In this document: positions 10,148 through 10,922 of the stretch, one piece after another
Layout of the letters: each line of letters opens with the position of its first letter
Numbering within the stretch: the first letter of the stretch is position 1
NCBI GenBank assembly: GCA_051648645.1
Contig: JBOFFP010000003.1
Coordinates: 224,001-288,000 of the forward strand
Source: Candidatus Rhabdochlamydia sp.
GTDB lineage: Bacteria > Chlamydiota > Chlamydiia > Chlamydiales > Rhabdochlamydiaceae
Length of the DNA stretch: 64,000 nt
Reading direction: 5' to 3'
The notes under the pieces: generated by a model
The model's input: only the letters and a program-made list of their open reading frames with translations
What the model was told of the DNA's origin: nothing
Database searches by the model: none
Translations under genes and position numbers: made by a program

Positions 10148-10176
10148 TTGACTTATCGTTTTTTTGGCATTAACAT
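10148..10176 (+). promoter_or_regulatory. Sigma70/66-type promoter, copy 1
   Basis: TTGACT-17 bp-TAACAT; conserved in copies at 10764 and 14275. Confidence 0.65.
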
Positions 10177-10182
10177 ATCTTT

Positions 10183-10310
10183 TTTTTAAACTACAGGGAG
10201 CTGATGAACTGTATTTTTGTTACCTAGTCTATTAAAACTTATATCCTCCAAAAAGTAAGATTATAAATAGATAAGTTTACCATTTACAGTTTCATCAACT
10301 CCCTTTTTTT
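10183..10310 (+). ncRNA. Putative long-hairpin small RNA, copy 1
   Basis: GGGAGCTGATGAACTGTA pairs with TACAGTTTCATCAACTCCC; inner stems TCTATT/AATAGA and CTTAT/GTAAG; loop ATCCTCCAAAAA; T7 tail; no ORF. Confidence 0.65.
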
Positions 10311-10611
10311 ACGTTTAGAAAAATAGCTAGCATTTACCTTGAATAAGCAGCTTCGAATCACTCAAAAATGCAAATTTTTTCAATCGTCTTTTTATTAAAC
10401 AAGTTTTTCCAAATTCCAAAAGAACAAATATGTAAGTTCGAGTATTGGTATAAAAACTCTCCTTTCAAAAAATACCTGTTTTTTTAACTTTCTAAAAAAA
10501 ATTCATCTATTTTGTTTTTTATATTTATTACTAAAAAAACCTCGCTAATATTTTTAGCTTTAATTTAATAGATTCTCTAAAAGAAGTTAAAAATCTTATA
10601 AAAATAAGAGC

Positions 10612-10656
10612 TTAAACTTTAAGAAAATAAACTGTGTTTATTTTCTTAAAGTTTAA
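10612..10656. repeat. Perfect 21-bp inverted repeat
   Basis: TTAAACTTTAAGAAAATAAAC-TGT-GTTTATTTTCTTAAAGTTTAA. Confidence 0.85.
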
Positions 10657-10763
10657 TTGCTAAATCAGCTCACTTGAAAAACATTTTACTTCATAAAATA
10701 AGTTTGGAAGTTTTTGATATTTAGAGACTTCAAAATAATTATGAGAAACAAAAAAAACTTTTG

Positions 10764-10792
10764 TTGACTTATCGTTTTTTTGTTATTAACAT
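10764..10792 (+). promoter_or_regulatory. Sigma70/66-type promoter, copy 2
   Basis: TTGACT-17 bp-TAACAT. Confidence 0.65.
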
Positions 10793-10798
10793 ATCTTT

Positions 10799-10922
10799 TT
10801 TTTAAAGGTGTGGAGTTGATGCAGCCATGTTCTTGTTATCTAATCTAAAAAAACCATATCCTCCAAAAATAAGGTACGATAGATTAAGTGGTTACTATTG
10901 TGGTTTCATCAACTCCCTTTTT
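10799..10922 (+). ncRNA. Putative long-hairpin small RNA, copy 2
   Basis: GGAGTTGATG/CATCAACTCC base stem, TAATCTA/TAGATTA inner stem, same ATCCTCCAAAAA loop, T tail; arms diverged from copy 1 but still pair. Confidence 0.65.

Follow-up and report, generated by a model that had tools for sequence, protein, structure and literature searches.

In Gram-positive bacteria, the C-rich apical loops of RsaE/RoxS and RNAIII pair with GGAGG-type sites and block initiation, and leader domains that have been terminated or cut off, such as the terminated riboswitch leaders SreA/SreB of Listeria and the small RNAs (sRNAs) derived from 5' untranslated regions (5' UTRs), act in trans via a short antisense seed. 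In all Chlamydiae, Euo is regarded as the key repressor of the early phase, which keeps late genes off; to our knowledge, how the level of Euo is set is poorly understood, and we know of no well-studied chlamydial sRNA-target pair other than IhtA with hctA and ddbA. IhtA is described as an RNA of about 107 nt with three stem-loops, of which the last is the terminator (PMC4355289), a 7-nt G/C-rich clamp of loop 1 around the hctA AUG (CAUGGCG), and a block of translation that does not involve Hfq (PMC4355289, PMC3469542). Here we describe two tandem units of promoter and hairpin, named type A, in a 64,000-nucleotide stretch of Candidatus Rhabdochlamydia sp. (contig JBOFFP010000003.1, positions 224,001 to 288,000; this whole stretch is hereafter the window). 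The invariant loop of the hairpin is complementary to the start region of a probable euo gene, and we tentatively suggest that type A may be a trans-acting RNA directed against the Shine-Dalgarno (SD) region of euo. The window corresponds to C3:224001-288000 of the genome G000 (1.67 Mb, 35.5% G+C), and its eight sister species are denoted G001 to G008.

The two units lie 616 bp apart, and in each the promoter TTGACT-17-TAACAT is followed by a hairpin of about 108 nt, with the apical loop ATATCCTCCAAAAA, and by a T tract. A first-pass annotation, made from the sequence alone, had placed the units, promoters, hairpins, T tracts and loops correctly, and the loop that it had called invariant is indeed the same in both copies of the window. 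The features of the two units are as follows.

10097-10147, plus strand: conserved block upstream of copy 1, TTTTGA-N12-T(C>T)AAAA and an A-rich run, seen in an alignment of five promoters.
10148-10176, plus strand: copy 1 promoter of sigma-70/66 type, with the -35 box TTGACT at 10148-10153 and the -10 box TAACAT at 10171-10176.
10180-10323, plus strand: copy 1 type A RNA unit, based on folds, covariance model R1 (109 bits) and pair counts.
10180-10191 and 10313-10323, plus strand: 5' strand and 3' strand (GTTTAGAAAAA) of helix P1 in copy 1.
10196-10303, plus strand: long hairpin of copy 1.
10304-10310, plus strand: T7 tract of copy 1.
10241-10254, plus strand: copy 1 loop ATATCCTCCAAAAA, the predicted seed, with 15 nt against the euo start region of G000 and 13 nt against that of an HC2-like gene (see below).
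10712-10763, plus strand: conserved block upstream of copy 2, with the inverted repeat TTTTGA (10712-10717) / TCAAAA (10730-10735).
10764-10792, plus strand: copy 2 promoter TTGACT-17-TAACAT, with the -35 box at 10764-10769 and the -10 box at 10787-10792.
10796-10935, plus strand: copy 2 type A RNA unit, based on folds, covariance model R1 (144 bits) and the inverted repeat.
10812-10916, plus strand: hairpin of copy 2.
10918-10922, plus strand: T5 tract of copy 2.
10925-10935, plus strand: 3' strand of P1 in copy 2.
10856-10869, plus strand: copy 2 loop ATATCCTCCAAAAA, with a contiguous complement of 15 nt (ATTTTTGGAGGATAT) to the euo start region of G000.

The two copies belong to a duplicated segment of about 335 bp (9990-10325 versus 10600-10937) with 81% column identity. 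Within this segment the 56-nt promoter block is 96% identical between the copies and is conserved in the eight sister species, and the blocks of the 3' stem and the tail (20 and 18 nt) show 100% identity. The conserved block upstream of copy 1 could be an UP element or a transcription-factor site. The predicted sRNAs would extend from about 10183 to 10310 in copy 1 and from about 10799 to 10922 in copy 2. The base of each hairpin is a G+C-containing helix of 10 bp (GGAGTTGATG/CATCAACTCC) followed by T5-T7; the type A terminator predicted here was not called by a simple terminator scan. The unit carries no conserved open reading frame (ORF), and to this extent the earlier statement that it holds no ORF stands; copy 2 does contain a 50-aa ATG ORF (10827-10979), but copy 1 and the G002 homologue do not preserve its start or its frame. 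Short frames in the hairpin are likewise unconserved (ATG-TAA in four species, 7-9 codons in G000 and no ATG in G002), and the antisense strand of the hairpin shows no conserved start codon across the species compared. Rfam scans of the unit gave nothing above noise and matched no family, and the promoter, the hairpin and the anti-SD-like loop are conserved across the genus; these results agree with the view of the first-pass annotation that the units represent an unrecognised RNA family. As far as sequence can tell, type A thus has what is generally expected of a trans-acting sRNA gene, namely its own promoter, a basal helix with a T tract, an intergenic site and no conserved ORF. We also mapped contigs over 9000-15000 from one metatranscriptome run (X4) and three runs of unspecified type. 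The X4 contigs, which at about 4x are unable to show or exclude a small RNA, are on neighbouring coding regions, and none is at 10014-11072.

The first-pass annotation had missed that a long 5' leader begins with a domain of which type A is the terminated paralogue; this leader domain is also present in the window, at 14275-14433. This leader form (type B) bears the same promoter and an upstream block TTTGA-N12-TCAAA as in type A, and the upstream block of copy 1 is also found in type B promoters; its hairpin is homologous to that of type A and has no T tract. The type B helices are P1 (UUCUUUUAAACAC/GUGUUUAAAAGAA), P2 (GAGUUG/CAACUC), P4 (AUCUA/UAGAU) and P5 (ACC/GGU), and the loop is AAGAUCCUCCAAAAAAUCA. 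The hairpin opens a conserved leader of about 300 nt, which is followed by one or, often, two tandem ORFs of about 100 aa with the N-terminus MTWPTDLARQSTNPFSP. Most of these ORFs are CaaX-like at the C-terminus (CSLL, CCIR, CFIL, CCIQ, CSLM and CVLL), which suggests lipidation by the host prenylation machinery. The type B copy in the window (type B1) has the following parts.

14205-14304, plus strand: upstream block and promoter of type B1, with TTGACT (14275-14280) and TAACAT (14299-14304) separated by 18 nt.
14303-14433, plus strand: hairpin domain of type B1, without terminator, based on covariance model R2 (81 bits), alignments and fold.
14434-14914, plus strand: remainder of the type B1 leader, followed by a 99-aa ORF at 14615-14914.

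The B1 loop in G000 has degenerated to GGTTTTCAAAAA, with the stems kept, and the 99-aa ORF is a positional relative of the CaaX-ended ORFs of the sister species, yet its C-terminus is LPWR. A second type B unit of G000 lies on contig C4, and both type B copies of this genome lack CCUCC. We propose that type A may derive from the first domain of a type B leader, which was copied and acquired a terminator. The promoter family has a third member, TTGACTTAAT...TTAATAT, observed in G000 (C1:110483-110536) and G006 (C3:45621) ahead of an unrelated leader and protein-coding gene; it has neither the hairpin nor the upstream inverted repeat.

In a BLAST search using the unit as a query, matches were found in all eight sister species, and elsewhere only fragments of 22-38 nt were hit (E values of 0.001-0.0085). 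Type A is present in seven of the nine genomes of the genus (twice in G000, and in G001, G002, G003, G005, G006 and G008); searches with the covariance model R1 gave no type A match in G004 and G007, and none in 58 genomes from other Rhabdochlamydiaceae genera. Type B is present in eight of the nine and was not found in G008, an assembly that is 85% complete. Outside the genus, the type B model R2 gave just two matches (E values of 0.44 and 0.95), both without promoter and without CCUCC loop; the Rhabdochlamydiaceae searched beyond Rhabdochlamydia yielded no unit of either type. Each of the nine genomes keeps at least one copy with a CCUCC loop. The copy number is low, with two full and two related copies in the 1.67-Mb genome of the window and one or two in each sister genome. 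In six sister species type A is syntenic, convergent with two genes whose orthologues in the window are the ORFs 24245-24769 and 24776-25909; the type A copies of G000 are separated from these flanking genes by an additional set of genes spanning about 13 kb. In an anchored pattern scan (GAGTTG..loop..CAACTC) over collections of genome and metagenome contigs, promoter and hairpin were present in 6 of 14 pattern stretches in the genome collection, all from three assemblies (two Candidatus Rhabdochlamydia and one Chlamydiota), and of 9 stretches in the metagenome collection 2 were genuine, including a new type B (L123). The remaining stretches are chance matches in unrelated organisms.

The predicted plus-strand folds have energies of -31.1 kcal/mol in copy 1 (z = -5.3) and -31.2 kcal/mol in copy 2 (z = -3.8), which none of 200 shuffles equals. 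Because the minus strands also fold well (-38.1 kcal/mol for copy 1 and -28.8 kcal/mol for copy 2), folding of single sequences leaves the strand unsettled. The structure was further analysed with RNAalifold and with pair counts on sequence-only alignments, type by type and with no combined structural alignment of A and B, using 8 sequences and 26 pairs for type A and 9 sequences and 39 pairs for type B. In the type A stems 95.1% of the cells are paired, versus 30-43% when the partner strand is slid, and in the type B stems 93.5% are paired, versus 38-57%. Four pairs in type A have changed on both sides (2 of 500 shuffles reach four), and six pairs in type B (1 of 500 shuffles reaches six). 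G-U pairs account for 17 of the 205 type A cells and for 25 of the 340 type B cells; since these would be C-A mismatches on the opposite strand, the strand of the promoter is favoured. The covariation is supportive but thin, given the few and related sequences (8 and 9) and a structure derived from the same sequences. The first-pass annotation had read covariation between the two copies from two examples in the arms. The change from AACTGTA/TACAGTT to AGCCATG/TGTGGTT does include two double-sided changes (columns 49/127 and 50/126); the other one, TCTATT/AATAGA versus TAATCTA/TAGATTA, turned out to be a register shift of a single TCTA/TAGA helix. The overall architecture is a single long hairpin with an outer helix P1, in which the predicted 5' end is paired with GUUUAGAAAAA in both types. 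In the apical loop 9-10 nt are predicted to be unpaired, inside an exposed stretch of about 17-19 nt, and the loop is unchanged in 15 of 17 copies, whereas the stems vary.

To search for targets of the loop, we folded its exposed part against the region from -30 to +12 of 29,998 in-frame starts (ORFs of at least 40 aa) in G000. By duplex energy, the top site (rank 1 of 29,998) is GAUUUUUGGAGGAUAUAUAAAAAUG, at -20.6 kcal/mol; it is the start region of a gene on the minus strand at C12:27282, coding for a protein of 149 aa, which we take up below as the probable euo gene. For both copies it is the sole site in G000 with 15 contiguous complementary nucleotides, and no other start region reaches 14 nt. 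The first-pass annotation had proposed that the RNA controls neighbouring Inc or effector messengers; this did not hold, for none of the neighbouring Inc-like genes is among the best loop-complementary start regions of the scan, the best of which are those of euo on C12 and of an HC2-like gene on C1. The euo start region reads CUUGAUUUUU(U)GGAGGAUAU in all nine species. Against the euo of their own species, the type A loops (CCAUAUCCUCCAAAAAUAC) match 14-15 nt, and the type B loops (AAGAUCCUCCAAAAAAUCAAGG) match 16 nt in one and 18 nt in six of the seven species that keep CCUCC; the two type B copies of G000, whose loops have decayed to UUUUC, match just 7 nt. The two types share the core GGAGGAU and extend it in opposite directions, type A toward AUAU and type B toward CUUGAUU, and both extensions fit euo. 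Moreover, the 17-mer TTGATTTTTTGGAGGAT occurs, with at most one mismatch, exactly twice per genome in five genomes, once at euo and once as the antisense of the type B loop, and the reversed-pattern control of this search gave one match in total. G000 has U5 rather than U6 in euo, by which its type A match rises from 14 to 15 nt. As G000 is the sole genome that relies on type A alone, this is suggestive of a joint change, albeit a single one. A GGAGG motif lies upstream in 52 of 1382 proxy genes only, so that even apart from its flanks a loop complementary to GGAGG would be selective. In cofolding the loop-euo helix is retained, with net gains of -3.5 kcal/mol for copy 2, -9.2 kcal/mol for the type A of G003, and -13.6 and -17.0 kcal/mol for two type B hairpins; the gain is 0.0 for the loop-less B1 of G000. 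A conserved exposed seed thus faces a conserved mRNA site, which is the other general mark of a trans-acting sRNA.

We also searched for an antisense partner of the local euo start in four genomes of four other genera. In G046 and G010 only their own euo site was matched, and G021 gave only matches with three mismatches, which did not surpass the reversed-pattern control. In G045 nothing was matched, its own euo site included, so that this genome carries no weight here. Pairing of the loop in cis, with the type B ORF start (AGAGGUG) or with a box after the hairpin (GGGAGAGGA), was considered and rejected, as it gives just 4-5 bp. About 45-55 nt upstream of its start, the euo leader carries AGUUGAUG(G), 8-9 nt as in the 5' strand of P2 in type A; the 3' strand of P2 may thus make a second contact with the euo mRNA, or the likeness may be due to chance.

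The 149-aa target contains two HTH_17/excisionase domains, has matches of 70-83% identity in 28 out of 30 further genomes from the family, and has the Atlas cluster "putative EUO" as its nearest (0.98). Euo is described as a master regulator with tandem winged helix-turn-helix domains that resemble those of excisionases (PMC4989314). The features expected of Euo, a length of about 150-180 aa, the tandem excisionase-like domains and conservation in Chlamydiae, are all found in this protein, and it is a probable Euo orthologue on the basis of its domains, conservation and cluster together with the published description. A paralogue, 65% identical, lies 2.8 kb from the euo candidate on the minus strand at C12:24456; its start region AGAGGUGUCUUAUGA has 15 nt identical to the starts of CaaX-ended ORFs (L044, L038 and L039). 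The runner-up in the target scan is a 51-aa protein rich in lysine and arginine at C1:406410, whose start region UUUGGAGGAUAUAUG matches 12-13 nt. It ranks second or third best, its site is unchanged in eight of nine species, and its best Pfam match is HC2, a weak one below the cut-off (E = 0.014). The type B loop matches this site over just 10 nt. We observed that this protein and its orthologues (51-62 aa, rich in K, R, A and T) have a near-invariant 5' UTR of about 110 nt in the nine species, with the start codon only 4 nt past GGAGG, an unusually short spacing. A homologue of Hc1/HctA (PF07432) on C2 has the start region UUAGGAGGAAAU, in which 10 of 12 positions are matched; it shares only the GGAGGA core, has no AUG clamp, and fits the loop more poorly than the runner-up.

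How could these units work? Each would be a gene in its own right whose product is a non-coding RNA of about 125 nt, transcribed from a near-consensus promoter and ended by an intrinsic terminator made of the 10-bp basal helix and the U tract. The apical loop would then pair with the SD sequence of euo and its flanks, and more weakly with the HC2-like start region, and the pairing at the start would block 30S binding and lower the synthesis of Euo. In the sister species, type B leaders with the same seed might act in the same way, as whole mRNAs or once processed. That type A is a trans-acting anti-SD RNA which represses euo, similar to IhtA in action, is the explanation that we prefer, and we hold it tentatively, as one that may well prove wrong. 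A number of observations speak against it. In cofolding, the minimum-energy dimer of copy 1 does not contain the loop helix, and the minus strand of copy 1 folds better than its plus strand. The euo orthologues of other genera also have a U-rich stretch and (A/G)GGAGGA at the start, with different 3' flanks and no detectable hairpin RNA, which means that part of the complementarity to euo is generic. When CCUCC is fixed and the flanks are shuffled, 43 of 2000 loops reach at least 15 nt at some start region, and the type A match in G000 alone therefore has a significance of only about P = 0.02. Since conservation within the genus (about 90%) extends over the entire 5' UTR of euo, the conservation of the site does not provide independent support, and the invariance of the loop leaves no true covariation of loop and target apart from the one U5/U6 change. 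As a terminator, a hairpin of about 100 nt is unusual, and the 3' strand of P1 in type A, beyond the T tract, is still conserved (100% between the copies), which hints at read-through or another role and is left unexplained if termination is efficient. Neither form is indispensable, as G004 and G007 have no type A and the type B copies of G000 have lost the seed. Finally, it is not obviously coherent that one RNA should repress both Euo, an early protein, and the HC2-like protein, a late one.

Alternatively, the hairpin could be a leader domain that acts in cis and has no function in trans, serving type B mRNAs as a stabilising or regulatory structure at their 5' end, with type A as truncated duplicates, tolerated or decaying, and with an accidental match to euo. 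This is an unlikely explanation but one to be taken seriously, as it is favoured by the homology of types A and B with their common promoter and upstream block, by P1 pairing the extreme 5' end of the predicted transcript in the manner of 5' stabiliser hairpins, by the two species without type A, and by G000, where the type B stems were retained when CCUCC was lost and where the region of the type A copies has been rearranged, with the extra genes before the conserved flanks. Decaying duplicates, however, would hardly remain syntenic in six sister species with promoter and loop intact, or keep the loop unchanged in all but two copies despite the variation of the stems; a per-genome unique complementarity of 16-18 nt is hard to obtain by accident, and the type A terminator was gained exactly at the base of P2. 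A trans-acting RNA could also have a target other than euo, either as a general anti-SD RNA that damps GGAGG mRNAs such as those of the HC2-like protein and HctA, or as a decoy for a protein. We consider this improbable, though by no means far-fetched. The high rank and conservation of the HC2-like site, the fit of the hctA homologue and the selectivity of an anti-GGAGG loop by itself are in its favour, as is the fact that IhtA represses small basic DNA-binding proteins (PMC4355289, PMC3469542, PMC8343073). Nevertheless, the flanks of both loop types fit euo specifically, and on opposite sides of the core, no other start region gets to 14 nt, and the type B loop matches the HC2-like site poorly; for a decoy, there is no support for a protein partner.

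An element that acts at the level of DNA, such as a miniature inverted-repeat transposable element (MITE), the end of an insertion sequence (IS), a recombination site or a cruciform, would account for a duplicated unit with a long inverted repeat whose minus strand folds about as well as its plus strand. The low copy number is at odds with such an element, and no terminal inverted repeats or target duplications surround the unit. Moreover, the promoter is directional, G-U pairs are many, the position is syntenic, and the whole-collection scans match Rhabdochlamydia only, in keeping with an element restricted to the genus. We therefore regard a DNA-level element as very improbable, and a match to a MITE or IS end, which the first-pass annotation had put forward as grounds for abandoning the RNA interpretation, was not borne out. 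Returning to repression of euo by type A, it can be extended into a broader scheme, which as a whole we think is more doubtful. One hairpin module would have two uses, on its own as an sRNA and, attached to mRNAs for host-prenylated (CaaX) effector-like proteins, as their 5' domain. Both forms would repress Euo in trans and, secondarily, the HC2-like protein, so that transcription from the promoter family would directly influence the decision between replicative reticulate bodies and infectious elementary bodies. The sRNA would have been born from the leader and would be the first post-transcriptional regulator of euo, and in G000 the role would have moved wholly to the two sRNA copies, along with the change from U6 to U5 in euo.

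On the minus strand, the small ORFs at 7516-13924 of the window form an array in which none matches Pfam and seven are Inc-like in having two hydrophobic segments; the earlier placement of the units inside an Inc array is accordingly plausible. Two of the ORFs in this region, 11144-11623 and 12509-13150, are paralogues with long identical stretches. Between the two copies, 10612-10656 form a perfect inverted repeat of 21 bp around a 3-nt loop, and a diverged counterpart lies ahead of copy 1 at about 10013-10035; this repeat is probably a bidirectional terminator that was carried along by the duplication. Contigs of related strains (X1, X2 and X5) replace or skip 10481-10534, 10535-10791, 10937-11073 and 14603-14930, which indicates variation among strains in the type B1 ORF and in the spacers next to both copies.

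If repression of euo by type A is true, the units may control the chlamydial life cycle post-transcriptionally, and they would be a second, unrelated RNA acting on a developmental regulator, in a deeply diverged lineage associated with arthropods, which would suggest that RNA control of the cycle evolved repeatedly. The pair would be cleanly testable, with a seed of 14-18 nt and natural loop-less variants as controls, and the paralogous leader and sRNA would offer a rare view of the origin of a trans-acting sRNA from a 5' UTR. In our literature searches, full texts on Rhabdochlamydia small RNAs contained only unrelated work, no title or abstract on euo, sRNA and translation in Chlamydia describes an RNA regulator of euo, and no small-RNA study appears among the titles and abstracts on Rhabdochlamydia transcriptomes.

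Compared with IhtA, type A is likewise a small chlamydial RNA (about 110-125 nt) with its own promoter and terminator, whose hairpin loop is directed at the translation-initiation region of a regulator of the developmental cycle and which has a small basic histone-type gene among its targets, all of this being predicted in the case of type A. Unlike IhtA, type A is one long hairpin with a loop that covers the SD sequence and its flanks over 14-18 nt, has euo as its best predicted target, was found in Rhabdochlamydia only, and also forms the first domain of an mRNA leader. Judged against the published description of IhtA, the three stem-loops and the clamp on the hctA AUG are both absent. Failing on architecture and target features, type A is an analogue of IhtA and not a member of its family; the likeness to IhtA drawn by the first-pass annotation thus holds for the proposed mode of action and not for membership. 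RsaE/RoxS and RNAIII have several UCCC loops and many targets, whereas type A has one CCUCC loop with long flanks that fit a single mRNA, and they are unrelated to it in sequence and phylum. In SreA/SreB the sRNA is an alternative product of the same locus, whereas type A is a separate paralogous gene with no ligand-sensing fold evident. With an ordinary intrinsic terminator type A shares the basal helix and T5-T7, and differs in that its "loop" is a conserved, structured insert of about 85 nt and that a promoter lies 20 nt upstream. Judged from sequence comparison, what would be new here is a base-pairing anti-SD RNA that is unrelated to known families, exists both as an sRNA and as a leader domain, and appears to be aimed at the probable Euo.

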